Shown here: positions 19,257 to 49,867 of the stretch, piece by piece
Layout of the letters: each line of letters starts with the position of its first letter
Numbering within the stretch: position 1 is the first letter of the stretch
DNA from: Abditibacteriaceae bacterium
GTDB taxonomy: Bacteria > Armatimonadota > Abditibacteriia > Abditibacteriales > Abditibacteriaceae
NCBI GenBank assembly: GCA_031425655.1
Contig: JANPJS010000261.1
Span: 1 to 52,684, forward strand
Direction of reading: 5' to 3'
DNA: 52,684 bases
Notes under the pieces: model-generated
Seen by the model: the letters and a program-made list of their open reading frames with translations, nothing else
What the model was told of the DNA's origin: nothing
Databases searched by the model: none
Translations under genes and position numbers: made by a program

Positions 19257-19340
19257 CTCTCATGGCAAGGCTGCCAGTCGTTTTATTAGGATTGATGCAA
19301 CGGTTGTGTTTAGCCCTCATTGGAAACGACCGAGACAACG

Positions 19341-25133: not shown

Positions 25134-25537
25134 GCCTAATTGCTGAGAATACGCACGTTACGGCTCTGTTGTTCGCCCTAACCGGCTTTGGCAGCCTTGA
25201 CATTAACCGGGCGGCCCAGTGGCTCGACGAGGCTGATGCAGATTACGGCGACTTCGCTACCTTCATAGAATCGTTCTGCCAGGACACCGGCACTTCATTT
25301 GTCGGTCTTGACATCGTGGCAGTGGTTTTGGAATTCATCGCTCAGGAGGCTAAAGCCGACGAACTGCGCGAGCATATTTACGGGAACTACCTCGACAGCC
25401 GATTCGACATCGGGGAAGAAGAGGCGGGCCGCATCCTGTATGCGGTTATGGAAGACGAGCGCGGCGCGGCCTGGCGGTTTCTGGTGGGGTTGACCGACGC
25501 GGAAGAACCCGACCAAGCCTCTTTGGACGAAGAATAA
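25130..25537 (+). CDS. Highly acidic hypothetical protein
   Basis: ATGA overlap with the DnaN-like gene; about 30 D/E versus 7 K/R in 135 aa (hand count). Confidence 0.7.
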   Translation: MSLIAENTHVTALLFALTGFGSLDINRAAQWLDEADADYGDFATFIESFCQDTGTSFVGLDIVAVVLEFIAQEAKADELREHIYGNYLDSRFDIGEEEAGRILYAVMEDERGAAWRFLVGLTDAEEPDQASLDEE

Positions 25538-25584
25538 TTTCGAGTCGTTGGCACCTTAACGCCCAAAGACTCAACGTGTTGAAA

Positions 25585-25620
25585 GCCCCGCAGGCATCCG
25601 CCTGCGGGGCATTTTTGTTG
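25585..25620 (+). terminator. Intrinsic terminator
   Basis: GCCCCGCAGGC-ATCC-GCCTGCGGGGC followed by ATTTTTGTT. Confidence 0.8.
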
Positions 25621-25711
25621 GCTGGCAGAGTCGCCCGGTGATCCGCCAGCGCAACGACAAGACACCGGCATTGCAGGGCACATTCATGCGCCCTGCCGAT
25701 AAAGGAAATTC

Positions 25712-26602
25712 ATGGCAGAGATTGAGAATTGGAGCCGTCTCGAACCGGCGGCTCTCTGGCAGGCATGGAGAGAACCATTTGTCAGCGACACCTCAGCAAT
25801 CGCTCACGCGATCTGGGCGACCAATAAGTTGATAAAGGAGTTGCCTCGAAAGCATCACTGGCAAATCCACAATGAGTTCTATTCGATCAAAGACTACTTT
25901 ATCGAATCCCAGCAACATCATCTGGTCGAAGGGCGTATTGCTCGTATAGAAACCGGGCGTTGCGGAATTTGCAACGGTGATGGAGCGGAATGGGAAGGCG
26001 GCCCAAGTTGTGGCGTTTGCAACGGCAGCGGTGAGGCAGCATCGTCAACACTCTACCAGCACGATTTTGTGATTGACGGCCAGCGATACTCCTTCCACTC
26101 TTATTACCCACCTCAACAACTCTCCGATGAACCAGGAGAAAACCTTCAGCGGTATGGGAAACCATTGACCTCAGAAGAGCGCCAGGCTCTGCGCCTCCCG
26201 CGCAAAGGTCTCCTGAAACTGCTGCGACACGTCGCGATGGATCAGTGGAGCTTCGTATCCGATAACGGAGTTCTCTATTCGCCCAAAGGATATGTGACAC
26301 ATCAGCAGGAACTCAAGGAAATCAGCTTCCAACAGGCGATTGAAACGGAATACGAACGACAGGAAAGCGGCCATGTGGCCTGCCAGAAAAGCCGGACGCG
26401 CTTGGCTTTTCTCGAAGCGAAAAGAGTTCGCTTGCAGCAGGCACTGAAGCGTCAGCAACCAGGAAGCGCACGCAGAAAGAAGACCGAAGACGACCTTCGC
26501 AAAGCGGAATCGCGCATCGCTGAGATTCAGCATCAACTGCGAAGTATTGAAGCTAATCAAGCGCGCAGAGCCGCGAAGAAGAACGGCAACGAAGGGCATT
26601 GA
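25712..26602 (+). CDS. Hypothetical protein with CxxCxGxG zinc finger and C-terminal coiled coil
   Basis: CGICNGDG...CGVCNGSG; basic coiled-coil tail; AAAGGA RBS. Confidence 0.65.
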   Translation: MAEIENWSRLEPAALWQAWREPFVSDTSAIAHAIWATNKLIKELPRKHHWQIHNEFYSIKDYFIESQQHHLVEGRIARIETGRCGICNGDGAEWEGGPSCGVCNGSGEAASSTLYQHDFVIDGQRYSFHSYYPPQQLSDEPGENLQRYGKPLTSEERQALRLPRKGLLKLLRHVAMDQWSFVSDNGVLYSPKGYVTHQQELKEISFQQAIETEYERQESGHVACQKSRTRLAFLEAKRVRLQQALKRQQPGSARRKKTEDDLRKAESRIAEIQHQLRSIEANQARRAAKKNGNEGH

Positions 26603-26718
26603 TTCAGGAGAAAATCGCCTGGCATCTACACCGATGCCAGGCATGACGACAGCCACCGTAAATCGCCGAATTCAGGGGCGGAGCGGTTGCTGTCGTGGTT
26701 TACAAAAGGAGATCGAAG

Positions 26719-27792
26719 ATGAAAGAAGGAATTTCGTTTGACGAATTGACCGGGCGAGTAGCGCGTTTAGCGTCGCAGCGCCACGATTTTTATGCGGCGA
26801 CGAATGAAATGAGGCTCAATACTGAGACCGGCGAGAGTCGTCTGGTAACGTCGAGCGGCGAGTTTGGCCTACGAGACAGCGGGCACCTTCACCTAAGTGA
26901 GTTGACCGGAATTGATCGGAGGTATTATCAGCGGATGCTGACTCAGGCACCTGCGCTGCTCGCCAACAACGTCAATCACTGGCTGGCGCGGAGCGGCCCT
27001 AAACCACGTCTTGTGCGCGCATTGGATACGACCGTTCGCGCCATCGCATCCGTGCGTTACGCCACGCTTGATAACGACGATTTGTTATCCGCTGTTGAAC
27101 CGATCATTTGCGACCTCGGCGCGAAAATTGAGTCATGCGCGCTTACAAATGAGAGCCTAACGATTAAGCTGGTGACTCCGAAGTTACAGGGCGAAGTCAA
27201 AAAAGGAGACCCAGTTCAGGCAGGGCTTGTAATCAAGAACTCAGAAGTGCGCGCCGGTGCGTTGTCCGTTCAGCCGCTGATCTTTCGTCTCGTTTGCACG
27301 AACGGCCTAATTTCCGGCGGTGCCAATGGCAAGGCCGCCAGCCGCCGCCACATCGGTCGCGACTGGCGCAGCGACAACGATTACTTTGGAGTCGTGTCGG
27401 AGAATGTCGAGCGGGCCGCTTGGGAGCGCGGTGTATGGCAAAACCTCGCGGCCAATATCCGCCAGGCCATCAGCACCGATTCGTTTCAGACGATTCTCGA
27501 ACGCCTGACTGCTACGACGCGCTTGCAAAGCACGCTCGAACCGGAGCAAATCGTGGAACGGCTCGAATCGCTGGGGCCGGAGTATCGGTTGGGGCCAGAG
27601 ATTCAAGCGCAGGTCGTCGGGCATCTTCATGCCGATGGTTATGATGGGACTCTCTGGCACGTCATAAACGGCATCACGCGGGCCGCTCAGGACGTTTCCA
27701 GCTTCGAGGTGGCAACGAGCCTTGAAGAGCTTGGCGGCAGACTGTCGGCGCTGACGCAGCGCCAATGGGATCGGCTGGTCTCAGCCAATTGA
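26719..27792 (+). CDS. DUF932 family protein (phage/plasmid mobile-element associated)
   Basis: VRAIASVRYATLDN, IKNSEVRAGAL, FRLVCTNGLI, TLWHVINGITRAAQ; AAGGAG RBS. Confidence 0.8.
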   Translation: MKEGISFDELTGRVARLASQRHDFYAATNEMRLNTETGESRLVTSSGEFGLRDSGHLHLSELTGIDRRYYQRMLTQAPALLANNVNHWLARSGPKPRLVRALDTTVRAIASVRYATLDNDDLLSAVEPIICDLGAKIESCALTNESLTIKLVTPKLQGEVKKGDPVQAGLVIKNSEVRAGALSVQPLIFRLVCTNGLISGGANGKAASRRHIGRDWRSDNDYFGVVSENVERAAWERGVWQNLAANIRQAISTDSFQTILERLTATTRLQSTLEPEQIVERLESLGPEYRLGPEIQAQVVGHLHADGYDGTLWHVINGITRAAQDVSSFEVATSLEELGGRLSALTQRQWDRLVSAN

Positions 27793-27874
27793 TCCCATTC
27801 AGCCACTCTGATTCCGGTTCTCGCAAATGCCGGATCAGTTGATTTTCCCAACGCCTTAAAACCAAATACAACAC

Positions 27875-27903
27875 AAGCCAGGGCATTCCGCCCTGGCTTT
27901 TTT
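27875..27903 (+). terminator. Intrinsic terminator
   Basis: AAGCCAGGGC-ATTCC-GCCCTGGCTT plus T-run. Confidence 0.75.
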
Positions 27904-28117
27904 GTTAGTGAAAGGAGACCTCATGACGAGAAGCATTGAGAAAAGAATTCTGCACTTATTAAAACCTCCACGCGGGCCGCCCTGTGCGGACAGCACCCTC
28001 ACAGTCACTCTGGGTGCTGCCACCGAACCCAGCCCCAGTCTCGTTGGGGTTCACGACCAACTCATCACCATGCAGGTGATACCGAACAGGAATCCGTAAG
28101 GGTTCACAAAGGAAACG

Positions 28118-28654
28118 ATGAAGAATTACATCATTGAAGCGCGCCTGGCAGCACTTGACGCGGCTCTGGGTGGACGTAACGAGATAGCTGCGACTCTTCT
28201 CGGAAAGTTGAAGAATCCAGACTCTCATGAGGGAGTGCCATATAGCGGAATGATTGACTTCAACCGCGACTTCGAGAATCAAGAGTTTGCGGTCATAGTG
28301 AAGCAGCTAAAGCGATGGTTTGAGCCTGATCTACGGACACCACTCGAACCCATTTCCGAAGAAGCTGCCTGGCTATTTGAAAGCGCCGCCATGCGATATT
28401 TCGATTACCTAATCGAAAAAGTTAAAGCTGAGGTCAAGGTGGAGACGCTGAACGCTGAGTTTCGGGAAAAGCTCTGGGCTGAAATTGCGGCCCGTCAAGG
28501 TGCCCCTAACAGGGATGTCTGGGCTGAATTCTCTCAACTCATGGATGAGCGCGATGGGGAACTCATAGAGATCGTCGCCGATGCTGTCAACCACTGCGTA
28601 GCAGAACACGCAGGTGACGAAGGAATTGTGTTGACTGCCCCCCACTTTCCGTAG
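28118..28654 (+). CDS. Hypothetical protein
   Basis: AAGGA RBS; intact 178-aa ORF. Confidence 0.65.
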   Translation: MKNYIIEARLAALDAALGGRNEIAATLLGKLKNPDSHEGVPYSGMIDFNRDFENQEFAVIVKQLKRWFEPDLRTPLEPISEEAAWLFESAAMRYFDYLIEKVKAEVKVETLNAEFREKLWAEIAARQGAPNRDVWAEFSQLMDERDGELIEIVADAVNHCVAEHAGDEGIVLTAPHFP

Positions 28655-31313: not shown

Positions 31314-31769
31314 TTATCTGCCTTCCGGCTGAATGACTTGGGATAGGAGAATCGTGTTGATACCCAGCACCGTCGCAAACTGCGCGTCGTTCGTCACGAC
31401 GGCCTTGCAGCCTGAGATACGGGCTGTCGCGGCATGAATGGCATCGGGCAGCGTCAATTGCGCGGTGGCTCGTAAGCGCGCCGCTTCGATCAATATGTCG
31501 GCGCGCATGGGGCACACAACCAGGTGCGGTGAGTTCTGAATTGCCTGTTTGTAGGCTTTCTGCGCGGCCCGGTTCTTATTCTGGATCGGCCTCACCAGAA
31601 CCTCGGCCAGCGTTAATTCGCTCGTCACAGCTTGGATGTCGCCGCGCTCAGTTGCCTCGAAGAGCGCGGTGACTTCTTGGATGAAGCGCGGGTGCGATTC
31701 ATAAGCGTAAATAAAAATGTTAGCGTCGAGGTAGACCCGCTGCCCGAAAAGAGCTTTCACGAACTCCAT
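31314..31769 (-). CDS. PIN-domain (VapC family) toxin
   Basis: VYLDANIFIY, TSELTLAEVL, LPDAIHAATA, VTND. Confidence 0.9.
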   Translation of the reverse strand: MEFVKALFGQRVYLDANIFIYAYESHPRFIQEVTALFEATERGDIQAVTSELTLAEVLVRPIQNKNRAAQKAYKQAIQNSPHLVVCPMRADILIEAARLRATAQLTLPDAIHAATARISGCKAVVTNDAQFATVLGINTILLSQVIQPEGR

Positions 31770-31966
31770 GTCGCACGCTCCGCTCGGATGAAGACATCAA
31801 CCTCTTCGATGCTTTCAAAGTCTGGCTTGCCTGCACCGATCAACGCGAGAAGTGGCCCCTGATTCTGCAAGCGTTTCGGTTCTCGTCCTGCGGGCTGTGC
31901 GGAATCTTGAGTTTCCGTATTCGGGATTCGCGCGGAATCGTCATTCTGTTCGCCGCTATCACTCAT
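31757..31966 (-). CDS. Putative antitoxin
   Basis: Small ORF overlapping the toxin start; LLALIGAGKPDFESIEEVDVFIRAERATW tail typical of PIN partners. Confidence 0.7.
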   Translation of the reverse strand: MSDSGEQNDDSARIPNTETQDSAQPAGREPKRLQNQGPLLALIGAGKPDFESIEEVDVFIRAERATWSS

Positions 31967-32636
31967 GGGTGTCGCCTGCATCTACTAACTCGTTTTTCAC
32001 AACTGGCTTCAGCATCCAATGCTGGTCGCTTTGGACGTGATTCGGACGGACATATTTGGCGATGCAAGAGTGAAAGTTTGCTTCCGCAAACGCTTCGCTG
32101 CGCCGCACCACATAGCCCTCCTGTGGCCCGCCAAACGCCGATTGTCCGCTGAAACAAGCCTTGACCCGCTTTTCGTCCCAGAGGCCCCTGTAAAGCACTG
32201 GGGGCGTCAATAACGGCTGCCCGTTGGCTGGATCAACAATCGTCGGACAAAAGGCCACCGTATCATCCCACGACAGGAATTTATCCCCATCATGGACGCC
32301 GAAGGCGACGTAGTAAGTTGGCAGCGCCCGATAGTGAATCGAATGCAGCGCATAAAGGCTCTCGCCGCAGATGCGCCAACCTGTCGGGATAAGATGCTTG
32401 ATTCTCGCATGAAACGACTTCACCCAGCCGCGCGAAACATGATGCCTGCTGTCAAGAGAACGGGCGTGCAGGTGCGTGCGGTAGAGGGTGGTATTCTCAC
32501 CGTCGAGCTTTTCCGTGACGACAATCTCCCGGCCCCTGAAGACCGAGAGGTCACGCAGCACATGATCGCCATCGGGGCCGATGGTGTCCGACCAGGGTAG
32601 GTGGTGGGTGCGTGCATACTTAACGCTTTGTTGCAT
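31959..32636 (-). CDS. ATP-dependent RNA ligase family protein
   Basis: KYARTHHLPWS, motif I TEKLDGEN, ICGESLYA, EGYVVR, IAKYVR. Confidence 0.88.
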   Translation of the reverse strand: MQQSVKYARTHHLPWSDTIGPDGDHVLRDLSVFRGREIVVTEKLDGENTTLYRTHLHARSLDSRHHVSRGWVKSFHARIKHLIPTGWRICGESLYALHSIHYRALPTYYVAFGVHDGDKFLSWDDTVAFCPTIVDPANGQPLLTPPVLYRGLWDEKRVKACFSGQSAFGGPQEGYVVRRSEAFAEANFHSCIAKYVRPNHVQSDQHWMLKPVVKNELVDAGDTHE

Positions 32637-32764
32637 AACTGAACCTGCTGGCACTAATGTCTCCGCATGCTGCCACAGAACAGCCAGTTTAGTTCATGTG
32701 ATTTTGTCAGCACGCAAAAACAATAGACTCTGAAACCATTCGCGTGTGATAAAGAATCCTAAAT

Positions 32765-33418
32765 ATGAACGAAACTAATAAAACCCCGACAATCATGGCT
32801 ATAATCGGTGCTGTGCTGATCTTCGCTTTTCTCTTCGCACCGATCCCCGGTAAAGTTGAGGGGTCAGACTCCACCATCTTTTTGGTTGCAGGCCGGGGCG
32901 AGCAATGGGGCTTGTTCCTGCTCGCTCCGCTCGCGACTTTCTTCATCTGTCGAAACACCGGGGCTTGGGGTGCAGGCTCGGCTGGTATTCTCCTGCTGCT
33001 GGCTCTTTCCAGCGCATTCTATTCAAGCCAGGGCGGTAATACCGAAGCACATCGGGGAACCAGCAGGTATTACCCTTTTAGCGAGCCGACAATCTTACAT
33101 TGGACGGCGCTTTTCTGCGGGGTCATGCTGCTTTTAGGAGCCGCCATCTGGACGATAAGACAACCAGAAGCTAAGCCTGCGTTCAGTGCCAGCCAAACAT
33201 CTGGCACCTCGCTCCTGGACGATGTGGACTGGGGCTGGTGGGGAATTGCCGCAATCTCGTTGGCCGTCTGGCCTCTTGGGCTACTGCTCTATTTTGCCTA
33301 TTCCCGAACCGGCGACGAGAAGGGCGGCGCGGCCATTATTGGTGCGGGGATAGGTTTGATACTCATGGCGTTGCGCTTTGTGTTTATCATGTCGAAGGTC
33401 GGCGCCGGAGCCACATAA
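32765..33418 (+). CDS. Hypothetical integral membrane protein
   Basis: About six hydrophobic segments. Confidence 0.65.
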   Translation: MNETNKTPTIMAIIGAVLIFAFLFAPIPGKVEGSDSTIFLVAGRGEQWGLFLLAPLATFFICRNTGAWGAGSAGILLLLALSSAFYSSQGGNTEAHRGTSRYYPFSEPTILHWTALFCGVMLLLGAAIWTIRQPEAKPAFSASQTSGTSLLDDVDWGWWGIAAISLAVWPLGLLLYFAYSRTGDEKGGAAIIGAGIGLILMALRFVFIMSKVGAGAT

Positions 33419-33431
33419 TCGGAGATAAAAG

Positions 33432-33581
33432 ATGGCAAACGAATTCACCGAACAACAGCAGGCCGCCCACCAGGCCATTGCCGAAATCGCTGCCGATTTG
33501 GGTGCTGCGTTCACCCTGGACGCCGTGGCGGATGCGCTGGGCCAGGCGGCGCGCACGAAAGCTGGCCCAGCGTGGAGTTAA
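33432..33581 (+). CDS. Small hypothetical protein, 49 aa, not in the ORF track
   Basis: GGAG RBS; MANEFTEQQQAAHQAIAEIAADLGAAFTLDAVADALGQAARTKAGPAWS*. Confidence 0.45.
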   Translation: MANEFTEQQQAAHQAIAEIAADLGAAFTLDAVADALGQAARTKAGPAWS

Positions 33582-33612
33582 AGTCTGAATCCGTGGGAAG
33601 GTCAATCAGACT

Positions 33613-35577
33613 TCAACCGGATTCGCCTTCATGGAGTTGCAGCGCGGCTTCGTAAGCCTCTTGAAAGTCCAATTGCGTATCCATCTCCGGCGCGATTTTC
33701 TTGAAGCCAACATACATCAAGGCCAGCAATTGCAGGCCGCTGAACTCTTCACCGGGCGCAGAGCGCAAGTGGTAACGCCGGTCAGGATCGGAGTAATCAA
33801 TGCCGTTTTGGCCGACCGTAGCGACTTCCATTGTGAGTGTCCGAATGTCGTTGTCGTCCATCTGCTCGAAACGTCGCAGTGCGCTCAGGCAATACATCAC
33901 CGTTGCCGGGTGTTTTTGCTTTAGCAGTTCGGGGTTGGTGCTGCCTTCAGGCGTTTGCGGCGGTGCCTCGAAGCCCGCCGGTTTCGCTGGTTGTGGCCCG
34001 TTCTCGCGCCACTCATACCATTCGTTCAGCGCCAGCACTTTGGCGGCTTCGTCAACGAATTTGTATTCGTCTCCATGTTGATAGTCCGGCATCATGCGCT
34101 GCCATAAACCAAATAGCTCCTGACCCACCTTCATGAATTCCGTGTCTTGATAGGCGCGGGCATACTCGGTTTTGCCGCCATAGATATGATCGGTAAACAG
34201 GGCGTAGGCACAGTTCAAGGCGTTGCTGGCGCGGAAGATCGAAGGTGGCGTGATCTTACGGATGTCGCGGTTAGTGAGAATCGAGGCATTCTCGGTTTGC
34301 CGGGCGTGCAGCGACACGAATTGGCTGGGGCGCAGTTCGGGGTAACGCTCAAAGACCCGATACTCGATCACCATGTCAAGCGGCGTGTTGAAAAGCTGGT
34401 TCGCCAAGCCACCGACCAGTTGGAGAATTACGCTGGTGATCTCGCCTTCGGGATAGCCGCTGCGTTGCAAGCGAAAAATGTCCTTACTGATCGAGCGCAA
34501 CGCGATCTCTCTGGTGCCGATTGTGGTGGCAAAAGCCCGGTTTCTTCCTGCCTGACGCGCTTCGTGTTCCAGATGAATGTGTTCGAGTTCGTGTGCCAAG
34601 TGATGCGGCGTGATCGCTGGAATCTTGTTCTTATATTTGATCCGATGGGTGTCAGTATTGTGATTCCACGCCATCTGCGATACGGCGTCCGTAGAAAGCG
34701 AATTATCTTCTTTGACTTCGATCCGGTTGCCGGTCTGGCTTTCCAACTCCTGTTTGCGCCCCTCAATCACCTGCATGAACGAATCATACGCCCGCTCGGC
34801 GATCTGCTTGTTGATTTGCAAATACAAGGCGCGGGCGGCAGCGTAAACCGATTCGCTGCGCGGATCGCTGGACTTAGGCCGCCCAAACAAGGAATCAATC
34901 GTTTGCAGGGATTCGGTCAACTGTCCGGCCTGGGCGTCAACCAGGGCGATGCCGTAATACGAGTTGGGATAGTCAGGATCGACTTCCCTGGCGCGCTCCA
35001 AAAGTTCGCGGCCTCGTGCCACCTTGCCGGTCTTGATGAGCGTGCCGCCGTAGCCGCACAGCAGATACGGGTCGTCAGGACTCAGCGTGTAGGCTCTCTG
35101 GTAAAAGCGCGCGGCTTTCTCAGAATTGTCTTCGTTCTTGGAAAACAGGTTTCCCAGCAGCAAAAACGTCCAGGCATCATCCGGCGCTAAGCGCGCGGCT
35201 TCGACCAGGCGCTGTTTAGCTAATTCAATTCGATCTGATTCGAGATAAGCCATCCCCAGATTGCGCCGTGATTCAACGTGATCCGGCTGTCGTTCAAGCA
35301 CCTTCTTGTAAATATCGATGGCGCGAACGTAACCACCGCGCCCGGCCTGCTTTTCGGCGCGCTCTATCAGGTCGGCGAGTTCTTGCGGGTTCTTAGGCGC
35401 CTTTACGGGCCATTCAATGGTCGCTACGCCCTCATTAATGGCAACGGTCGCTGTCGGCAAAAATGCGTAGCACTTCCGCACAACTTCTTCGGCTTCTTCT
35501 ACCGGCAAGACTTCGAGATCAACTTCACGATCCAGATCAACGATCACGTCGGATAAGGCAACTGTCACACGGTTCAT
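33613..35577 (-). CDS. TPR-repeat protein with HEXXH zincin-like metallopeptidase domain
   Basis: About five TPRs (AIDIYKKVLERQPDH, RRNLGMAY, AARLAPDDAWTFLLLGNLF and others); HHLAHELEH and downstream NTPLDMVIE. Confidence 0.8.
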   Translation of the reverse strand: MNRVTVALSDVIVDLDREVDLEVLPVEEAEEVVRKCYAFLPTATVAINEGVATIEWPVKAPKNPQELADLIERAEKQAGRGGYVRAIDIYKKVLERQPDHVESRRNLGMAYLESDRIELAKQRLVEAARLAPDDAWTFLLLGNLFSKNEDNSEKAARFYQRAYTLSPDDPYLLCGYGGTLIKTGKVARGRELLERAREVDPDYPNSYYGIALVDAQAGQLTESLQTIDSLFGRPKSSDPRSESVYAAARALYLQINKQIAERAYDSFMQVIEGRKQELESQTGNRIEVKEDNSLSTDAVSQMAWNHNTDTHRIKYKNKIPAITPHHLAHELEHIHLEHEARQAGRNRAFATTIGTREIALRSISKDIFRLQRSGYPEGEITSVILQLVGGLANQLFNTPLDMVIEYRVFERYPELRPSQFVSLHARQTENASILTNRDIRKITPPSIFRASNALNCAYALFTDHIYGGKTEYARAYQDTEFMKVGQELFGLWQRMMPDYQHGDEYKFVDEAAKVLALNEWYEWRENGPQPAKPAGFEAPPQTPEGSTNPELLKQKHPATVMYCLSALRRFEQMDDNDIRTLTMEVATVGQNGIDYSDPDRRYHLRSAPGEEFSGLQLLALMYVGFKKIAPEMDTQLDFQEAYEAALQLHEGESG

Positions 35578-35704
35578 ATCTTTTAATTCCGACAATTGGA
35601 GAAACGAAAACAACGGATTAGTATAGGTTCGGGTCTCTACGCACCGCTTCGCCGACTCAGTCACGGCTAAACTAAGACAAAGTAACGACAGCAACTTAGA
35701 AGTG

Positions 35705-37750
35705 CTACTCCGCCAAAGCCTTCAGCAAAGCATCGCGCGAGTCGGTGTAGTAAACGATGGTTACTTTAGCAGCCATCTCATCGGAAAGATCGTTAAGCTG
35801 ACGCCGGGCCGACACCGGAAACATCACGATCTGTGCGCCTTTCTCGACAGCCAATTCCGCCACGTTCACAGCGTTATGGATCGGCTCAAAGGAGCCGCCG
35901 ACACTCAGGCCACCAACAACGACCAGCCCACCTCGCAGGCTCTTCGCCAGCAGCGCGCTGCCGAATGCCAGCAGTATCGGCATCCCCAGGAGCGCGCCGT
36001 TCTTCGAGGTATCCATCGCGCGCACCTGGATGTTGAGTTCATGCTGCCGGGCGTCGCGATCACCTACCAGTTCCTTGTTACGCGCTAAGAGGTTTTGATA
36101 TGCGGTTTGAACGCTTTCTCGTAGCGGGCCAGGCGCGCCAACATTGGTGATGCGGAAGTTGGAGCCGGGTGCTTCGTTGACTTCGATGCGATAAAGACCA
36201 GCGGCTTCGTCTTGTCCGCCTGGACTGATTCCCCAAGCATGGCCGGGCGGCAGAGGGTCGGTTCCGATACCTTCAGCATTTTGCAGTTCAGGTGTGGAGA
36301 CAAAAGTTTCAATGCCGTCCGTGCCGATACGGTAGGAGAACTGCGTGTTGCGAAACTCGGCGGTGCCGATACGTTTTTGCTGCTCCTTGACGCGGCGCCG
36401 ACATTCAAGGGCCAGGCGCACCGCCCATTCCAGGTCGGCATCGGGAATGTCCGTTGTGCTGCTGGGATACAAGAGCTTCAACAGGCCGCTGACGGTGCGG
36501 TTCACAGCGGTGGTATCGCGACCACTGAGCGCGCCACCGTAATCAACTCGCTCCATGAAGGAAGCAATGCGGGTTTCGCCGCGCAGGCGCGTCCAGCACT
36601 CTGCCAGGAAGTCGCTCACGAAGCCGAAGTGATCGGTGAAGAGATCGGCCTGCATTTTCGGCACGTCCCAGCCAGGAATATAAGCGTGGATGCGATCCAT
36701 GAGCGCGGTGTCGTCGCGCATCTCCGGCGGCATGGGGCCGAAGAGATGGCCGATGCGCTGCTGGTGCTCGACATCCACGTCGAAGTTACCAACCATCATC
36801 ACGCCGCCGTCAGCACGGATACTTTCGCGCCCCCGGCTAAATTCGCCGGACTCCATGTAGCCCTTCATGATGTTGACCCCGTCCTTCTGATCGAAGGACA
36901 CGCCGGAGACTTCATCGAAGCAGACCACGTCGTATTGGCACACCAGGCCACGTTGGCCGTTGGAATTGTTGACGAACATCCGCGCAACTGTGGCTTTGCC
37001 ACCACTCACCAGGTGCGAATACGGACTGACCTGCTGGTAGAGATGGCTCTTGCCGGTGCCTCGTGGGCCAAGTTCTACCGCGTTGTAGTTGCGCTCTACA
37101 AAGGGCACCATACGCAGCAGCAGAATGTCCTGGGCGCGTGGTGTGAGATTCTGCGGCTCGAAGCCAACGCTCCGCAGCAGAAAGGCTTTCCATTCATCGG
37201 TCGAAAACGCTGTGCGTCCTGCGGCCAAGTCGTCCAGAACGCCGCGCTTAGAAAGCTGAATGGGGCGCAGCGTCCGTAAGCCGAAAGGGCGTCCTGAGCG
37301 TTCCTGGGCGATGGCCGCATCATATTCCAGTTCCACCTCAGCGTAGAAGCCGCCGGTCAGCATTCGTTCATTTGCCAGCACCATCTCCGGTTCGATCCGC
37401 ACGTCTCTGAGGCGGAGGCTCGGAAGGGTGGCGACGTAAGAATCAGTCTCTGCATCAAGCCGGGCTGTCACCAGGTCGATGATCTTGACGCTACCGCGCT
37501 CGCGTGCCTGCGCTTTGAAAAGCTCTTCTTCACCGGCGCGCACGGTGCGCTCGCGCATCTGCTTTTCAACAATCTGCAAACCTTCAGCGATTTCTTCTTC
37601 ATCGGTCGTGGCGCAATAGCGGCCCAGGAGAAATTCGGCTACATAGGTCGGCACCGGATATTGGCCCTTGAAACGGCGCACCAAGTCCTTACGGACGATG
37701 TAGCCATCGAAGGCCCCGGCGGCGAGTTGATCGAGTGCGTCAAGTTCCAT
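35705..37750 (-). CDS. brxL: BREX system Lon-related AAA+ protein
   Basis: VRKDLV...VPTYVAEFLLGRYCA, ELGPRGTGKSH, DVVCFDEV, MDRIHAYIPGW, C-terminal Lon-like domain. Confidence 0.93.
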   Translation of the reverse strand: MELDALDQLAAGAFDGYIVRKDLVRRFKGQYPVPTYVAEFLLGRYCATTDEEEIAEGLQIVEKQMRERTVRAGEEELFKAQARERGSVKIIDLVTARLDAETDSYVATLPSLRLRDVRIEPEMVLANERMLTGGFYAEVELEYDAAIAQERSGRPFGLRTLRPIQLSKRGVLDDLAAGRTAFSTDEWKAFLLRSVGFEPQNLTPRAQDILLLRMVPFVERNYNAVELGPRGTGKSHLYQQVSPYSHLVSGGKATVARMFVNNSNGQRGLVCQYDVVCFDEVSGVSFDQKDGVNIMKGYMESGEFSRGRESIRADGGVMMVGNFDVDVEHQQRIGHLFGPMPPEMRDDTALMDRIHAYIPGWDVPKMQADLFTDHFGFVSDFLAECWTRLRGETRIASFMERVDYGGALSGRDTTAVNRTVSGLLKLLYPSSTTDIPDADLEWAVRLALECRRRVKEQQKRIGTAEFRNTQFSYRIGTDGIETFVSTPELQNAEGIGTDPLPPGHAWGISPGGQDEAAGLYRIEVNEAPGSNFRITNVGAPGPLRESVQTAYQNLLARNKELVGDRDARQHELNIQVRAMDTSKNGALLGMPILLAFGSALLAKSLRGGLVVVGGLSVGGSFEPIHNAVNVAELAVEKGAQIVMFPVSARRQLNDLSDEMAAKVTIVYYTDSRDALLKALAE

Positions 37751-37772
37751 AGGTGTTCTTTTCGATTTTCGT

Positions 37773-40106
37773 CTACTGACCGATTTCGGTCGGCGTCTTG
37801 GAAATGACCTCGCCATCCTGACTTAACACCACGATCAAGGCCGGATCGCCCAGGAGATTATCGTCCGCGACCAGTAAAGCAACTTGGCCGTCCGCACCAA
37901 TTGGTTTGGTTTCTGTGACAACGGAAGTGGTCGCGTCCGCTGCCTTTGTGCGAATATCGGCCACAAGGCCCGGCGTAGCGCCGCTGACTTGAATGCGGCA
38001 ACGCAGACCCTTCCATGTGATATTGCCAATCGTTACGGTTGGCCCAGCCACATTGCCGCTGGTTACGGTCAGGACGGGCACAACGCATTCCTGCGGGCTG
38101 AGGCCGCCGTGTTCGTATTCTTTGCCTTCTTCAAAGCAGCAGATGCCCGGTGCGACAGCCATCCGAACTTCTTTATCCCAGTGCCAGGGCACGGTCTGAA
38201 TCGTTGTGTCGGATAAATCTTTCAGGCGAGCACAGCGGCCTTTGCGTTTTTCGGTAAGGTGTTCTTTCAGTTCCGCTTTAGGTAAGCCACCTGGCAAGAG
38301 CAGCCAGCCGTGATCGGTGACGATACGAACTTCTTTCCATCCGGCGTCCAATAACGCCTGCACGCGCTCGGTCAACGCACGCACTTCCTCGCCGACGCGG
38401 CGCGCCATCTTCCAGCCTTGTTCGTGGCCGTAACGGTCAAGGCTGCCACTTTCCGTCCAAGCACCACCTAACGACCGCTGGGTGTCGCTGCCGACTTCAT
38501 CGCCCATCAGCACCGGATAACCGTGCGCGCCTAATTCCTTCCGCAGCACTGTGATGTTGACCTTCGTGCCATCCGCAGCCACAACCGTGTCGAAATCGTT
38601 GCCAGGGCCAAGCAAGGACGCCACAGGCGATACCGCAGGCTTGGCGGTCGGAGTGACGCCGGGCAAGGCCGAGAATTTCCATTTGAGATCGGCCTTCAGG
38701 CCCTTAGTCTTCAGTTCCGAAGTGAGGCGCTGGGCGATGTCGAAGCGCAGGCCATCGGCAAATAAGAGGCATCGACCGGCGTGGGAAATACCGCCGGTGG
38801 ACTTTGGCGGCGTAGGCAATGGATGTTGGCGCACCGCGCTTTGAAAGGCTTCTGCTGTGACCCGAAGCCAATCGCGGTAAAGCGCATCAACGGCTCCCTT
38901 GACGACAGTAACATCATCGCCGCTTTCGACACCTGCCAGAGCCTCCAACACCGCCGCGTCGGCTTGCCATCCTTGAGCCGCATACGTTTCAGCGATCTCC
39001 GTAGGCGTGCTGCCGCCGCACGGCGTTTCCGTAGCAGTAGCTAATGCCAAGAGTGATGGCAGCACCTTCGCCAATGGCGCCTTTCCCAACTCCGCCCATA
39101 CCCAGGTGCGCCGCACACCATGCTCTTCTTCCAGAGCGCGCACCCTGCTACGAGCTTCCCCTGCGGTGAGACCCTGCAATGCCGCTAATTGCTCGCGCAA
39201 GGTGGCTTCAGCCTGCACGTTATCTTGAGGCCAGGATGAAGGCTCGTCAAAGAGACCGCTGCCTTTGGCGGGTTTGGCTCGTTCGAGCAGCGCAGGTAAG
39301 TTCGGATAGCGCCGGGGTGCGTGCGCGAAGCGTTGCCAGACACTCGACCAAGCGCCGTCCCGCTGTCCCATTTTTTCAGCGCCGGTCAGTTCGCCTTCGG
39401 TGTCAGGGTCGAACTTCCAACGCTCCTTGCAGATCGCCTTGAAAGCACTCCACTCGGCGGCATCATAAAGCACACGCTGGCCTTTGGGGTCGCAGAGCCA
39501 TTGCAAGAGCTTCTCGATCGGCTCTGGGTGAACGATGTTGTTGATTTTGGCAGCGGTTAGTGGTGCTTCATCGCGCAGGGCCTCGACGGGAGTATCGGCG
39601 AGTTTCGGCAAGGCGTGCAGCAGAGCTTCTTTGGTGGCGTTGTCGGTTTCAACGCGGATGCCGAGGCCGTGATCGGCGTTTTGCAGGAAAGCCGCAATCG
39701 TCCAGTCACGATGGTTAATATGCGTCCATAGCTTGCCACGATATTGCAACTCGGCCAGCGGCTGCAAAGCCGCCGGACACTCTTCAACGGCGCGCAATTC
39801 CTGGCGGCTGACACCCGGCAGGTAGATGATGGGAATCGTGCCTTCAGGCCAGTCGGCTTCTGGCAAGGTGCGCGCGATCATGCAGCGCAGCCAGATGGCT
39901 GGGCCGGTGCACGTGGTCGGTCCGTAATCGCCCAGCGTCAGCAATGAAGGCAGGACTTCTCGCAGACGCGGCACCAGGGCTTGCCACTGGCTTTCCTTGT
40001 CCGTCCACAGGATTGCCGCTGGCGCGACTTCCACCTGCTGGTTATAGGCTCCGGCACGTTCGAGGGCGTGTAAGAAGGATTGAAAAAAGGTGTCGGAGTT
40101 ACTCAT
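37773..40106 (-). CDS. pglZ: BREX-1 system phosphatase PglZ type B
   Basis: PAAILWTDKESQW, TGPAIWLRC, LFADGLRFD, LPGVTPTAKPAVSP, IVTDHGWLL, YEHGGLSPQECVVP. Confidence 0.93.
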   Translation of the reverse strand: MSNSDTFFQSFLHALERAGAYNQQVEVAPAAILWTDKESQWQALVPRLREVLPSLLTLGDYGPTTCTGPAIWLRCMIARTLPEADWPEGTIPIIYLPGVSRQELRAVEECPAALQPLAELQYRGKLWTHINHRDWTIAAFLQNADHGLGIRVETDNATKEALLHALPKLADTPVEALRDEAPLTAAKINNIVHPEPIEKLLQWLCDPKGQRVLYDAAEWSAFKAICKERWKFDPDTEGELTGAEKMGQRDGAWSSVWQRFAHAPRRYPNLPALLERAKPAKGSGLFDEPSSWPQDNVQAEATLREQLAALQGLTAGEARSRVRALEEEHGVRRTWVWAELGKAPLAKVLPSLLALATATETPCGGSTPTEIAETYAAQGWQADAAVLEALAGVESGDDVTVVKGAVDALYRDWLRVTAEAFQSAVRQHPLPTPPKSTGGISHAGRCLLFADGLRFDIAQRLTSELKTKGLKADLKWKFSALPGVTPTAKPAVSPVASLLGPGNDFDTVVAADGTKVNITVLRKELGAHGYPVLMGDEVGSDTQRSLGGAWTESGSLDRYGHEQGWKMARRVGEEVRALTERVQALLDAGWKEVRIVTDHGWLLLPGGLPKAELKEHLTEKRKGRCARLKDLSDTTIQTVPWHWDKEVRMAVAPGICCFEEGKEYEHGGLSPQECVVPVLTVTSGNVAGPTVTIGNITWKGLRCRIQVSGATPGLVADIRTKAADATTSVVTETKPIGADGQVALLVADDNLLGDPALIVVLSQDGEVISKTPTEIGQ

Positions 40107-40141
40107 TAGCACTAAGAGCTTGCACGTCTTATTTAACTGGT

Positions 40142-40215: not shown

Positions 40216-43200
40216 TCACTTTGCCTGCGCCGCCTTCGCAATTTCCTTTTCGGCCCTTGTGAGATGTAAATCGTTCAAGCGTTCGCTGCCATCGGGGTTG
40301 GTGCCGCGATCTTTGTTCCAGTTGACGGTAAATTTGGAGCGTAGCACGCCAGCAGTAACGAAGGGGCGAATGTTGAGGCGCACACCGTCGTTTAAGTCCG
40401 GCTCCCAGCCGACCGGCTGCTCGTGACGCGCTTTCCAACGCACATAAATATCGTAAGGTGGCTCGCCTTCGAGAATGAGGCGCAGCGTGTTTTGAAGGTT
40501 TTGCGCGGCCACTAAACGCGCGTTGGCTCCGGCTTCTCCGGCATTGTCGGCATCACGTTGGGTGTTGATCCAATCGCCGAGGTAACGGAAGATCAGCTTT
40601 TCGAGCTTGGCGCGGTCAAGCGTATGATAATTGACGATGGCGGCAAAGCCGTCTTTGCGCCCGTCCCAGATGTGCCAGAGAAACGGGCGATTGTGGAAGA
40701 GACGGCAGTGCTGCGCGAAGAAGCCATCGCGCAGCCATTCGTCCAGACTTTTTCCAGCAAAGCCTGCTTCGCTTAGCAAATGCTCTTGGACGCCTGGCGA
40801 CCACTCAGCGCTAAAAGCAGCCGCCAGCAAAGCGCGCAAACGCTCAGCGCCGGGTTGTTCGCCTGCAACAGGTGGCAAGCAGACGATGCCATCGGAATCA
40901 GCGTAGGGCGCTAAGTTATCGTCCGAGTTTTGCGGCCAGCGATAGCCGAGCAAGCGCGCCATCGCAGTTTGCAGCGGGTCGGTGGAACGCGCTGGATGCC
41001 CGTCGAAAAGCCACTGCGTCGGGTCGTCCGAGTGCGGCTCCGGCAAGCCGTTGGGATATTGCTCGTCCGCCACTTTCTGCCAGCGGTCGAGATCGAACGG
41101 GACTTTTAATAAGGTTTGGTTGGTGACTTTCAACGATTGGTCTATGCGCCGCACCGCGATGTTGAACTCAGGCGACGAGCAGAAGGCCCAAATCGCGGGA
41201 AGATGCGCGGGGTTCAGCGGCCATATGACAGCACAGTTGTTGTCAAACAAAGTGCCTTCGTAGATGGAAACTGGCAATCCGCGCATTAAGCCAACAACGA
41301 TACCAGCTTTTCCCCAAACTTCTCCGCCTTGAATGCTTGCAACACCAATTTTTGCAAGGTCTTTGATTACACCTTCACCCTTCTGCCATAGAACGATATG
41401 TTCTTTTCCACCGAACAGAATGGTTGAAGTGATAGTGCTTTGGTGCAGGCTCCAATCGTCATAAACACTCGGTAGTTCCCAGAAGCAGAATATAAACCGA
41501 CTGCCATCAGCAGTTCTTAAGCCCCATCTGCTATCAGCAAATGTCTTTAAAAGGACGCCGCCTTCATGTTCTTCCAGCGAAACACGCGCATCAGGATTTT
41601 CCAACTGAGCCATTTGACTCACCAACTGCAACCCGCCTTCGCGCAGTAAAGCGGCTTTTTGCGACGGGACGCGCGGCGCGCTGGCGTCAATTCCCGCTAT
41701 CACGGTTTCGGCGGACGATTGACGACGGGTGAGAACGAACATTGCCGTAAATGCGCCTGCCGCTTGCGAACTTTGAAAGCCGTTTTCGCCCAGTTTCGCC
41801 ACGAGATTCCACGTTTCGTTTTGCAGCAGATTTTCGCGCAGCTTTTTGTAGGAGCCGAGAAAGAGCCAATTCTGTGGTGTGACGAGCGCAACACTACCGC
41901 CGGGCACGCAAAAGTGCAAGCAGCGTTCGACAAAGGCAGTGGCAAGATCGGCTTTGGCCGCAGGATGATGGCGCTCGCAGAAATCCGCTAAAGCGACTCC
42001 TTGCTTGCCGCGCGCCAGATACGGCACGTTGGTGACAACGAGATGATATTTACCAGCCAAGATTTGCCCGGCGCGCACCGCTCCTTTGGCGGTTTCGCCG
42101 AAGATGGCCGCCGCCGGATCGTCCGTGCTGCCAAACCTCTGCATCGCTTCTTCGAGTTTTTGCAGCACTTTGGCAGGCTCGGCCAGCGGCTTGAAACCGG
42201 CATTGGTCGCCGCGTGCGGGTCAATCAGGCTGCCGACATCAGGTGCGTCTTTGAACTGCATCCACAGTTCCCATAGGCTGGCGCTAAGTTGTCCGTCGCC
42301 GTGCGCCAAGCGCGTCCAATCGCTTTGCTTACCGCCGACCGCCAAACCCGAACACGCGATATTCGGGACAGGCAAAGGTCGGTAGCCACCAGCTTTCCAG
42401 GCCGCCAGCGCCAGGTTGAAAGCCGCGATTTGCGTGCAACGTGGGTCGAGTTCCAGACCGAACAGATTCTCTGCCAACACCTTGTCGCCTGCGTCGGCTT
42501 CGCTTAGGTTTTCTTCGATCATGCGGAAGCGCCGCAAGAGTGCAAAGGCCGCCACCAGAAAGTGACCTGATCCACCGGACGGATCAAGCACGCGAAGTTC
42601 TGCCGCTGTTTGCGGCCAGCCCGCAAAATCACCAGCCGCCGGAGTCCCATCGTCCTTGCGCCGTAGATATTCGAGATCAGTTGGCAAAGGAATATCAGGG
42701 TGCCGCGACACCCACCAGGCGCCGAGCGAGTTATGCAGCAGGAACTGCACCATGTAATGCTCGGTAAAAAGCTGTGTGACCGGCGAGATGTCGGCGCCGC
42801 CGATCTTCCTGCCACTTTCGTTCACTTCTTTCTTTCGTTGCGTCTGCCAGAATTGATAAACCCAGCCGAGGCTATCGTCGGCATGAAACACTTCAGCAGG
42901 CAAATCTACTAACAACTTCTCAAGCGCCAGCCGCCCTTCAGCAGCCAGTCGCACCTGCAAAACCGGATCGTCGTTGCGAAAGATGCCGGGCAGCATGGCT
43001 GAGGCATATCTTGCCGCTGCCATCCAGGCGTCGGCATCGCCTTCTTCCTTTGCCAGCTCCGCGCAGTCAGCCAATGTGATCGGCGAACTTTCGTCATACA
43101 TCAGCAGGTTGTTTTCAGCCAAGAAGCGTGCGAACAGCATTCGATGCCACTGGGCGTAGGCGCACTCGGCGACCAGATCGTCGAAACCACTCTGAACGCC

Positions 43201-43398
43201 ATTGCCGCTAAAGCGCCGTGCTTCAGCGCGCAGCAACTTCCACAACTGCCGGTCACTTTCGCTCATGCTGTCAAAGGCGCTCTCTTGATCGACGGCAAGC
43301 GTTTGCAGCGCCGCCTTCGCGGCTTTTTCGGCGGCATCACGAGCGGCCACAATGGTTTTTTCTAACTGGCTGCGTAGGGAGCTATGAAGTGCTGTCAT
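40216..43398 (-). CDS. pglX: BREX-1 adenine DNA methyltransferase PglX
   Basis: WHRMLFARFLAEN, LGWVYQFW, VTQLFTEHYMV, LDPSGGSGHF, VVTNVPY, WEPDLNDGVRLNIRPF. Confidence 0.92.
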   Translation of the reverse strand: MTALHSSLRSQLEKTIVAARDAAEKAAKAALQTLAVDQESAFDSMSESDRQLWKLLRAEARRFSGNGVQSGFDDLVAECAYAQWHRMLFARFLAENNLLMYDESSPITLADCAELAKEEGDADAWMAAARYASAMLPGIFRNDDPVLQVRLAAEGRLALEKLLVDLPAEVFHADDSLGWVYQFWQTQRKKEVNESGRKIGGADISPVTQLFTEHYMVQFLLHNSLGAWWVSRHPDIPLPTDLEYLRRKDDGTPAAGDFAGWPQTAAELRVLDPSGGSGHFLVAAFALLRRFRMIEENLSEADAGDKVLAENLFGLELDPRCTQIAAFNLALAAWKAGGYRPLPVPNIACSGLAVGGKQSDWTRLAHGDGQLSASLWELWMQFKDAPDVGSLIDPHAATNAGFKPLAEPAKVLQKLEEAMQRFGSTDDPAAAIFGETAKGAVRAGQILAGKYHLVVTNVPYLARGKQGVALADFCERHHPAAKADLATAFVERCLHFCVPGGSVALVTPQNWLFLGSYKKLRENLLQNETWNLVAKLGENGFQSSQAAGAFTAMFVLTRRQSSAETVIAGIDASAPRVPSQKAALLREGGLQLVSQMAQLENPDARVSLEEHEGGVLLKTFADSRWGLRTADGSRFIFCFWELPSVYDDWSLHQSTITSTILFGGKEHIVLWQKGEGVIKDLAKIGVASIQGGEVWGKAGIVVGLMRGLPVSIYEGTLFDNNCAVIWPLNPAHLPAIWAFCSSPEFNIAVRRIDQSLKVTNQTLLKVPFDLDRWQKVADEQYPNGLPEPHSDDPTQWLFDGHPARSTDPLQTAMARLLGYRWPQNSDDNLAPYADSDGIVCLPPVAGEQPGAERLRALLAAAFSAEWSPGVQEHLLSEAGFAGKSLDEWLRDGFFAQHCRLFHNRPFLWHIWDGRKDGFAAIVNYHTLDRAKLEKLIFRYLGDWINTQRDADNAGEAGANARLVAAQNLQNTLRLILEGEPPYDIYVRWKARHEQPVGWEPDLNDGVRLNIRPFVTAGVLRSKFTVNWNKDRGTNPDGSERLNDLHLTRAEKEIAKAAQAK

Positions 43399-44438
43399 GG
43401 GATTGCGTTTTCAGTTGTTTCTGCGCCATCGGCCTGATTTAATTGCAGAGCGCGTTCGCGGAGTGAAAGGGTATCGCCTTCGATAGTCCAGCAGTCTACA
43501 GATTTTATGTGTGGCTCTTTATAGTTACCTCCAAATTTGTCGCAGAGGGTTCTTGTCAAGCCGCGCACAGCATACACTTCGCCGTCGAACTCCCACTCAA
43601 ATGGATACAAACTAAATCCTTTGTATGTCGCCCACTTAGCTTTCTCGTCCGTGACATTTACCTGCTCTTGTGGATTATGTATCAGTTGGATGCGCGTTCC
43701 TACTTTGAGTAGGCCATGCCTGAAAAGAGTCTTTACACTTGGTTCGCGGCGATCACCAGATGGTTTCCGATCTTCTTGCCGTTTCTTTTCAGCAATTTGT
43801 TCGATGTATGCAGCCGCTGAAGGTAATGGAATGATCTGCTCTACATCGAGATAGAGATCGCTGCTTAACCGATAAGGTCTGGCTTGAAGACAGCGAATAT
43901 CTAAGCCGCGTGCGTTAAGCCACAGGACAGTCGTTGTAATCTCTTTAGAAAACGTCGGTGCAACCAGAACAATGCGCGGCGTATCGCCAATTATCACTTC
44001 ACTCGATTCGGATTCACCTAAATGTTCGAGCAGGTCTTGGCGGGCTTGATCGGGGTCTTTTTTCTGACGTGATAAAAATCGCTCACGCGCTTGAACTGCC
44101 ATCTCAAAGTCCATTGCGGAAACCATCGCAGCGTAGCGAATGGCCTGAAGCTCCATGTGCCCGCCTTCTTCTTCGATCTTCAACTCGATCACGACAAGGT
44201 TGGCTTTTTTATCCAGCGCCAGTAAATCAATGCGGCGTTTGCTGTCTTGCCAGCTATCGAACTCTTCACGCAGAATTAGCAAGTCTTTATCAATGGCATC
44301 AGGACGGTTTAGCAGCAATGCCTGCAAGTCTTGGCGTTCTTTCAATTGCTCGGCGGAATAAGTGCTTGGTGTTTGGGGCTGCAAATCGTAAGTGCGCTCG
44401 CTGCCTTCGCCTTCGATGCTGATTTTGTAAAGTGGCAT
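43395..44438 (-). CDS. NucS/EndoMS-like PD-(D/E)XK endonuclease with C-terminal RAMA-like domain
   Basis: ERQDLQ, RIDLLALDKKANLVVIELK, LQAIRYAA. C-terminal LFRHGLLKVGTRI...FDGEVY...DCWTIEGDTLSLRE. ATGA overlap with pglX. Confidence 0.75.
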   Translation of the reverse strand: MPLYKISIEGEGSERTYDLQPQTPSTYSAEQLKERQDLQALLLNRPDAIDKDLLILREEFDSWQDSKRRIDLLALDKKANLVVIELKIEEEGGHMELQAIRYAAMVSAMDFEMAVQARERFLSRQKKDPDQARQDLLEHLGESESSEVIIGDTPRIVLVAPTFSKEITTTVLWLNARGLDIRCLQARPYRLSSDLYLDVEQIIPLPSAAAYIEQIAEKKRQEDRKPSGDRREPSVKTLFRHGLLKVGTRIQLIHNPQEQVNVTDEKAKWATYKGFSLYPFEWEFDGEVYAVRGLTRTLCDKFGGNYKEPHIKSVDCWTIEGDTLSLRERALQLNQADGAETTENAIP

Positions 44439-44525
44439 GATTTCGTTTTAGGCTTCCGTTACTCAACGACAACAGGATTCCCGGCTGCAAAGTGTTTGAG
44501 AATCTACCTATGTGCCTGGGCTAAG

Positions 44526-44858
44526 TTATATGGTGGTTTTGGACGGCTTAACGGTTTTTAAACCGCTGGTGTGATGAGCGCGCTTCAGAGAATCCAAAGT
44601 GACGTAGCAAAATCTCATCGTGAAAGCTGTGCCTCTGCCCTTCCTATCGACCTTATCGTTGACAATCCGTGCAGGTAACTGAACGGTTTCTCTGTCTCTC
44701 TGAGTGGAAAGAAAAAGCACTTGATGCCAGTTATCAAGCCGATTTCCTTTAGCAGGCGGCTGCGGGTCGGCTTCGATCCTGTTTACAAGCCGTCTGAGCC
44801 GCTCTTTGATGTCCGCCACATCTTCTTCGTCCACAAACTCATCCGTCACTAATTCAAT
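44526..44858 (-). pseudogene. 3' remnant of a gene truncated by the IS
   Basis: The reading frame (...HQVLFLS...IVNDKVDRKGRGTAFT...YVTLDSLKRAHHTSGL) begins immediately at the IS end. Confidence 0.55.
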
Positions 44859-46054: not shown

Positions 46055-46057
46055 TTT

Positions 46058-47620: not shown

Positions 47621-47635
47621 TACTCAAAGATATTT

Positions 47636-47944: not shown

Positions 47945-47969
47945 AGGTTTCTCTCTTGCAAGCATTCAA

Positions 47970-48094: not shown

Positions 48095-48098
48095 GTTT

Positions 48099-49148: not shown

Positions 49149-49170
49149 AAAATCGAAAAGAGTTTACGCT

Positions 49171-49863: not shown

Positions 49864-49867
49864 CCAG

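Follow-up and report, generated by a model that had tools for sequence, protein, structure and literature searches.

Sensor-protease defence and the regulation of defence operons are known kinds of immune function, and several described systems come close to the gene analysed here. CapP, which combines an HExxH peptidase with HTH and GAF domains, cleaves CapH on ssDNA (10.1101/2022.04.27.489752). DdvA, a TPR-CHAT protein, is described as the anti-sigma factor of a Myxococcus CBASS-CRISPR island (PMC11506125). Lit cuts EF-Tu and the TPRs of Avs proteins bind phage proteins, and the same source treats as established both the sensing of phage proteins by TPRs and the triggering of the Lit protease by phage (PMC13581612). 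DUF2075 proteins have been linked with Nhi-like defence as well as with modification-dependent nucleases (10.1101/2022.05.11.491447; PMC6765204).

The window, i.e., the whole analysed stretch of 52,684 nucleotides from an Abditibacteriaceae bacterium, carries a gene for a protein with a TPR array and an HExxH motif, which would resemble a sensor-protease guard or a CapP-like leader in its working and is, on the features tested, a member of none of these families. With CapP, IrrE and RmrA (M78) it shares the HExxH core, a three-stranded sheet before the motif helix and the position of the family ahead of defence operons. In contrast to these proteins, it lacks an HTH linker, a GAF domain and a CapH-like partner and instead has a TPR array, its own C-terminal domain and an additional helical lobe. 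Neither the PADLOC model of RmrA nor the Pfam M78 model matches the window protein, and the best family member reaches an E value of 0.12. Like DdvA, it joins a TPR array to a protease fold and is linked to defence islands (PMC11506125), whereas DdvA is a membrane anti-sigma factor that has a sigma partner and a caspase-type domain; the window protein is predicted to be soluble and of zincin type, and no sigma partner was seen.

Lit is likewise a single-gene HExxH protease, and the phage-protein trigger and host-target cut proposed below would be analogous to its action, but no PADLOC model of Lit matches the window protein. Lit is not known to have a TPR array. In Avs and other STAND proteins a TPR sensor domain is linked to an effector (PMC13581612), whereas the window protein has no NTPase domain (no P-loop family in Pfam) and a short array of about six repeats on its N-terminal side. 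BrxR, CapW and RptR are also first genes before BREX, R-M and other exchangeable systems; these are DNA-binding transcription factors, while the window protein shows no HTH or WYL match. The DUF2075 domain, i.e., the SLFN-g3 nuclease-helicase domain, of Nhi, Nhi-like, AbiO and PDC-S41 is found in the commonest cargo of the family. However, those systems are described as single genes, and SLFN-g3 cargo is absent from the window genome. Overall, the gene is probably an unnamed, mobile, switchable TPR-zincin defence gene and not a BREX component.

Domain organisation and predicted active site

The TPR-HExxH gene lies on the minus strand (35577 to 33613), starts with ATG at 35577 and encodes an intact protein of 654 aa. 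A longer ORF with a TTG start at 35694 is not supported by the start position of the homologues, because 21 full-length homologues start at the ATG-equivalent. The gene follows the stop of brxL (35705) on the same strand after a gap of 127 nt. One contig of a public run (35257-36874) joins the gene start to the brxL end; as the window may itself derive from this run, the contig is not independent support. An AlphaFold2 model built with a 22-sequence alignment (pLDDT 88.4, pTM 0.72), together with library searches, gave the following features:

33613..35577, minus strand: TPR-HExxH gene, 654 aa (ORF, homologue starts, AlphaFold2)
35404..35577, minus strand: N-terminal beta-alpha-beta-beta domain, aa 1-58 (AlphaFold2; no family match in Pfam or PHROGs)
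34792..35388, minus strand: TPR array, aa 64-262, 12 TPR-type helices in about six hairpins, putative sensor (Pfam, AlphaFold2, fold searches)
34006..34788, minus strand: zincin-like domain, aa 264-524, predicted zinc protease (AlphaFold2, conservation, profiles)
34579..34593, minus strand: HELEH motif, aa 329-333 (intact in 57/63 homologues)
34363..34389, minus strand: NTPLDMVIE, aa 397-405, with N397, D401 and E405 (D401/E405 are candidates for third ligand and helper)
34243..34251, minus strand: T-P-P codons 443-445, ACG CCA CCT, no C run in the window copy
33937..33996, minus strand: Pro-rich low-confidence linker, aa 528-547 (AlphaFold2)
33616..33936, minus strand: C-terminal domain, aa 548-654, modelled 549-653 (AlphaFold2; also on shorter TPR proteins)

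In the model the zincin-like domain begins with a helix, three strands and the HExxH helix (264-342; strands predicted at 285-315, HExxH helix at 323-342), followed by a helical lobe with D401 and E405. Pfam matched TPR models only (residues ~79-240), NCBIfam gave only TPR matches, all sub-threshold, and PADLOC a single weak match of the TPR region to PDC-M16B (E 3.5e-4). The C-terminal domain, which may have a separate job, matches P0038 (48%) and L044 (40%) over aa 559-648. Both belong to a second architecture of ~360 aa (L044:11203-12282 and P0038), in which TPRs are joined to the same C-terminal domain without an HExxH domain.

The HExxH motif is intact in 57 of 63 diverse homologues (23-65% identity) and missing in six; H325 and D401 are each found in 62 and E405 in 61 of them. 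Since these positions are kept across 63 diverse sequences, the motif does not arise by chance. A predicted zincin-type active site is thereby well supported from conservation and modelled topology, and the window protein presumably binds zinc and acts as a protease. Relations to known families are faint. A profile of the middle domain runs in register with the IrrE/RmrA pair over the strands and HExxH, but this match is weak (E 0.0024, probability 12%), and Pfam at a loose threshold gave, for 25 members, eCIS_core (0.0045), DUF2201_N (0.017) and M78 (0.12). No credible match was obtained with a profile of aa 273-654 against PDB sequences, and none with three domain pieces of the window protein against PHROGs. 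Whole-model fold searches against the PDB with Foldseek and VIA-align returned TPR rows only and barely probed the HExxH and C-terminal domains; the search against viral models also returned only TPR rows. The HExxH domain folded alone, without an alignment, gave a poor model (pLDDT 43), and a co-fold of the intact homologue L019 with Zn and two MazG-like chains scored 0.00, which speaks neither way on binding.

Neither the protease nor the C-terminal domain is identified by any model in Pfam, NCBIfam 20.0, PADLOC-DB 2.0.0 (2023) or PHROGs. No description of the TPR-HExxH family was found in the literature covered, which leaves out most subscription papers and bioRxiv supplements (tables of the Millman 2022 type could list the family). 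DefensePredictor has MazG among its predicted, unvalidated defence domains, and among its leading supplement matches no entry for a TPR-HExxH protein was met (PMC13092281).

These results agree in large part with a preliminary description of the window made from its letters. The ORF coordinates reproduce the co-orientation and the distance of 127 nt after brxL. The small N-terminal domain and the TPR array described there are seen in the AlphaFold2 model, the latter also by Pfam; HELEH and the NxxxDxxIE motif are located at 329-333 and 397-405, and the separate C-terminal domain lies past a Pro-rich linker that the model places at 528-547. HExxH is conserved (intact in 57/63), and the view of the protein as possibly undescribed holds for PADLOC-DB 2.0.0, NCBIfam 20.0, Pfam and PHROGs.

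Distribution, neighbourhoods and the slippery C run

Residues 273-654 match 1,422 clusters at 50% identity (E<=0.001). The family is patchy, being found in 1 of 31 genomes of the class and 2 of 301 of the phylum, as well as in 16 of 401 genomes in the phylum of a Bacteroidetes MAG; among 401 genomes of the proteobacterial phylum of an Enterobacteriaceae-labelled MAG the seed stood alone. The gene, full or split, is also carried by two plasmids and one phage record. In the window genome, which is 97% complete, it is present as a single copy; its nearest relative is P0002 (65% identity) and the nearest named one an Abditibacteriaceae MAG (64% over part of the length). The phage record (L045, PP438423.1), filed as Microcystis phage Mwe-JY31, contains the gene with MazG-like and SLFN-g3 partners as a full trio next to Rep3, HerA-like and SMC-like genes; in appearance it is closer to a plasmid than to a phage. 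In Syntrophales-like genomes (L016, L025, L028, L029, L030) the gene repeatedly follows what we take, from the sequence, to be a recA-recX-alaS-like cluster, possibly an insertion hotspot beside recA.

Loci were collected from GTDB genomes, plasmids, phage records, viral and metagenome contigs and other genomes, and 140 of them were kept besides the window. L039 and L040 (TPR-only matches) and L041, L046-L048, L009 and L148 (self, brxC, duplicates) were dropped, and the tally also omits L044 with its other architecture and the truncated copies L016, L038, L085 and L087. Neighbours were labelled with PADLOC, Pfam and NCBIfam (116 of 363 selected neighbours in one round, chosen subsets in others) and with profiles seeded from these; PIN, Fic, RmrA, AbiEii, NB-ARC, AlbA_2, HepT and AAA_12 genes did not enter the defence count. 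Dereplication at 90% left 78 clusters with at least 1 kb downstream and 78 with 1 kb upstream, in which one Desulfobacterota-rich lineage is over-represented.

A co-oriented defence-type gene was found among the next two downstream genes in 55 of the 78 dereplicated loci and upstream in 7 of 78, in a labelling that leans downstream because the profiles were seeded mostly from downstream neighbours. When dereplicated at 70%, the values were 33/45 and 2/41. The contrast drops to 17/78 downstream versus 7/78 upstream without MazG and SLFN-g3, a pair that is not a validated system. Most upstream genes have housekeeping functions; 5 of 89 upstream proteins match PADLOC at E<=1e-25. Over 67 loci, a median of 13 bp separates the gene from the first cargo gene. 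Overall, the cargo comprises a MazG-like protein with the SLFN-g3 helicase, McrBC, type I/II/III R-M, DUF499/DUF1156 modules and brxABC. In the 78 loci it is a MazG-like protein and/or the SLFN-g3 (DUF2075) helicase in 38, R-M, McrBC, DUF499/SNF2 or similar in 14 and BREX (brxABC) in 3, and in 23 none was recognised.

Copies linked at 90% identity or more carry different cargo. L019 is followed by MazG-SLFN and L100 by HsdM/HsdR-like genes; L053 leads MazG-SLFN, L076 MazG-McrBC and L077 Hhe/ProA-like genes with a type III MTase; L021 and L082 differ as well. As such closely linked copies lead unrelated cargo, the TPR-HExxH protein is independent of any one partner. The gene thus keeps the first place while the cargo behind it is exchanged.

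In many homologues the gene is split near aa 445 by a frameshift that falls on the T-P-P codons. Among 130 loci that cover this site, 43 of one lineage have a run of C7-10, and 21 of these 43 are out of frame (6 at +1 and 15 at -1), compared to 2 of the 87 copies without such a run, both with C5. Mixed frame states occur inside four of the 90% clusters. In lineage representatives, which are kin and include four frameshifted loci put into the lineage by hand, CCC is the codon of P444 in 19/21 and of P445 in 23/24 cases, versus 149/547 (27%) at the other 21 proline sites. These patterns in the sequences suggest slipped-strand phase variation at the C run, although homopolymer assembly errors can produce such frameshifts too. 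The window copy has no run and is intact, and thus would be fixed in the on state. Selenocysteine at C456 was considered as the cause of the recurring split and rejected, as the breaks are frameshifts and no in-frame TGA recurs there. A second slippery site, a T9 run at aa ~460, shifts the frame in the near-identical L004 and L060.

The BREX locus and its assembly

The region ahead of the TPR-HExxH gene contains the following features:

35705..37816, minus strand: brxL (NCBIfam TIGR02653 above cut-off, Pfam, PADLOC)
37773..40112, minus strand: pglZ of BREX-1 type B (NF033450, 885 bits, cut-off 400)
40216..43398, minus strand: pglX (PADLOC PglX, 1429 bits)
43395..44438, minus strand: NucS-like endonuclease gene inside the BREX operon (PADLOC candidate PDC-S11, 303 bits)
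44861-46052, minus strand: IS4-family element, with the left target-site copy ATTCAATAC at 44852-44860

All six BREX-1 core genes are present in the genome, which has a complete type-B BREX-1. The genes brxA-brxB-brxC lie on another contig, C133, which ends in the IS4 element of window 44861-46052. Six IS copies of the genome gave six pairs of 9-bp target duplications, in which the left flank of the window element (ATTCAATAC) pairs with C133 and the right flank (GTTTTTCAT) with C265. The stretch 46053-52684 therefore likely belongs elsewhere, and the window is probably mis-joined at the multi-copy IS4, although real recombination between IS copies would look alike. In one DNA run no listed contig crosses the IS4 element and 44073-44860 is thinly covered, which proves nothing alone. 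The simplest reading of the true order is brxA-brxB-brxC-(ORF broken by IS4)-nucS-like-pglX-pglZ-brxL-TPR-HExxH gene. The interrupted frame between brxC and the nucS-like gene is an unlabelled ORF (44526-44860 plus L041:1-420), which the IS4 element appears to split and of which neither side matches Pfam or PADLOC. The nucS-like gene overlaps the pglX start and has a GC content of 0.48, compared to 0.57-0.59 for the BREX genes; from GC and overlap we read it as a separately acquired passenger within BREX.

A promoter scan of 33000-36200 gave no sigma70-like site (1.6 expected) and three terminator-like sites (4.1 expected). Downstream of the TPR-HExxH gene lie small genes in convergent orientation, together with an RNA-ligase gene and a PIN toxin-antitoxin pair. 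Within 31314-32654 the RNA-ligase gene (PF09414) is co-oriented with a small antitoxin-like ORF and the PIN/VapC gene, possibly a repair-plus-toxin pairing. Further away, a block resembling a mobile element (23382-28654) carries a sliding-clamp fusion of 583 aa and a DUF932 gene, and a gene of the Streptomycin adenylyltransferase family (PF04439) is located at 19320-20195.

Relation to BREX and proposed function

The window protein has no match to BrxA, BrxB, BrxC, PglX, PglZ or BrxL in Pfam, NCBIfam or PADLOC, and the six core genes sit elsewhere, in line with the preliminary description, which had placed the gene outside the canonical BREX-1 set. It had further proposed the gene as a possible BREX accessory, which would guard or tune BREX. 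The co-orientation 127 nt behind brxL would speak for this, as would the absence of a called terminator-like site between the two genes. Relatives lie directly ahead of brxA in L033, L099 and L133 and of a brxA fragment in L032, and the brxA of L099 and L032 is of the same type as that of the window genome (51% and 56% identity), so that a small chance of a real BREX preference remains. However, BREX genes are near only 6 of 140 other loci (five clusters at 90%) and 3 of the 42 loci that extend 5 kb to either side; the other two positions are 2.6 kb ahead (L005) and divergent (L010), and the order of brxL followed by the gene occurs in none of the 140 other loci. In a FastTree phylogeny of aa 250-529 (95 rows, midpoint root, rows <170 residues omitted) the six BREX-adjacent sequences, with that of the window among them, fall in six places, each near copies with other cargo and none close to the window copy. 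With MazG-like and SLFN-g3 proteins as the commonest partners, the accessory claim did not stand up, and we regard this reading as very improbable. BREX is one cargo among many, and the TPR-HExxH gene is not built for BREX. The neighbourhood analysis gave a strong association with defence islands (55/78 downstream). The idea of a guard or backup survives as a general role, whereas its trigger by BREX inhibition found no support in the analysis.

A general, switchable guard rather than a BREX part is likely because the relatives mostly head other, interchangeable operons of DNA-targeting defence genes and, in one lineage, slip frame at the C run. We tentatively favour, at somewhat less than an even chance, that the TPR-HExxH protein acts on its own as a guard, a zinc protease gated by its TPRs that serves as a backup to restriction-type systems. 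Binding of an infection-specific protein to the TPR array would release the predicted zinc protease, which may then cleave a host target and thereby arrest or kill the cell once restriction-type systems have failed. The gene travels as the leading gene of exchangeable cargo, and here it has come to lie last behind a complete type-B BREX-1 operon, without cargo that belongs to it. The anatomy, conservation, distribution, neighbourhoods and slippery run are read from sequences and models, whereas zinc binding, protease activity, TPR sensing, toxicity, an anti-phage effect and phase variation in living cells are what we infer for this protein. The guard is preferred since unrelated cargo makes one shared substrate among the cargo proteins unlikely, no repressor partner recurs, intact copies without partner exist, as in the window, and the retained off-switch suggests a cost. 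The window genome has no MazG-like or SLFN-g3 match to our profiles and its TPR-HExxH copy is still intact; a kept on/off switch fits a costly gene.

The preference for the head of operons would suit a regulator and a guard equally. The main alternative, although somewhat unlikely, is a general CapP/IrrE- or DdvA-like factor that regulates or licenses whichever defence operon lies downstream: on a stress or infection signal the protease would cut a repressor, an inhibitor or itself and raise the activity of the following system, and the C run would toggle whole operons. The first-gene position in 55/78 loci with near-zero gaps is explained better in this way than by a guard, and a sigma70-like element (TTGACA-17-CATTGT/TATTGT) travels with the gene in one sub-lineage. 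The variation in cargo resembles that behind BrxR/CapW and CapH/CapP (10.1101/2022.04.27.489752), and the TPR-protease DdvA regulates a CBASS-CRISPR island (PMC11506125). However, a recurring HTH repressor or sigma factor was not found among the clustered neighbours, where very small HTH partners could be missed because unlabelled ORFs <90 aa were not kept. Only three loci (L005, L016, L100) have an HTH-M78 gene at a distance of a few kb, a family-wide palindromic operator was not found (the top dyad, in 9/58, comes from one sub-lineage), Pfam matches to HTH, GAF and WYL are absent from the window protein, and the window copy is last in its operon, not first. Less probable again is a joint reading as a phase-variable 'master switch', in which the TPR-gated zinc protease would sense infection and license or back up whichever DNA-targeting system is plugged in (BREX, R-M types I-IV or Schlafen-type nuclease-helicases), with the poly-C run hedging between armed and disarmed cells.

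That the protein is the dedicated third subunit of a TPR-HExxH/MazG-like/SLFN-g3 nuclease-helicase system, with other neighbours as later replacements and the window copy as an orphan, appears quite unlikely. The combination accounts for 38/78 loci, the trio occurs in distant tree branches, on a plasmid and on the phage record, and stop-start overlaps or 13-bp gaps connect the gene to mazG. But both partners are missing from the next two genes in 40/78 loci, near-identical copies swap cargo, and the window copy is intact and partnerless in a 97%-complete genome. Still more doubtful is a TPR scaffold or housekeeping peptidase with no immune role, whose promoter marks an insertion hotspot for defence cassettes: the 23/78 loci without recognised cargo, many in one gut-type Bacteroidota branch, and the mostly housekeeping upstream genes (5/89 PADLOC matches) would suit it, whereas the patchy spread, the plasmids and phage record, the frequent inactivation and the conserved slippery run are unusual for housekeeping genes.

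The combination of TPR and zincin domains is unnamed in the libraries searched. As a guard the protein would be a new single-gene sensor-effector; as a regulator it would be a non-DNA-binding leader common to BREX, R-M and Schlafen-type systems. With the poly-C run, bet-hedging in immunity could be tested directly, and the window adds a partnerless copy beside BREX and the finding of exchangeable cargo. Either way the gene has value as a marker, as the genes behind it are good candidates for defence systems, and several unlabelled cargo genes recur. An unlabelled 381-aa cargo gene beside mazG (L051:2047-3192, L054/L055), with 58% identity between loci and no Pfam or PADLOC match at the thresholds used, is a candidate for a new defence gene. 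The SLFN-g3 cargo of ~800 aa at L034:12260-14662 ends in a LexA-type S24 peptidase domain.
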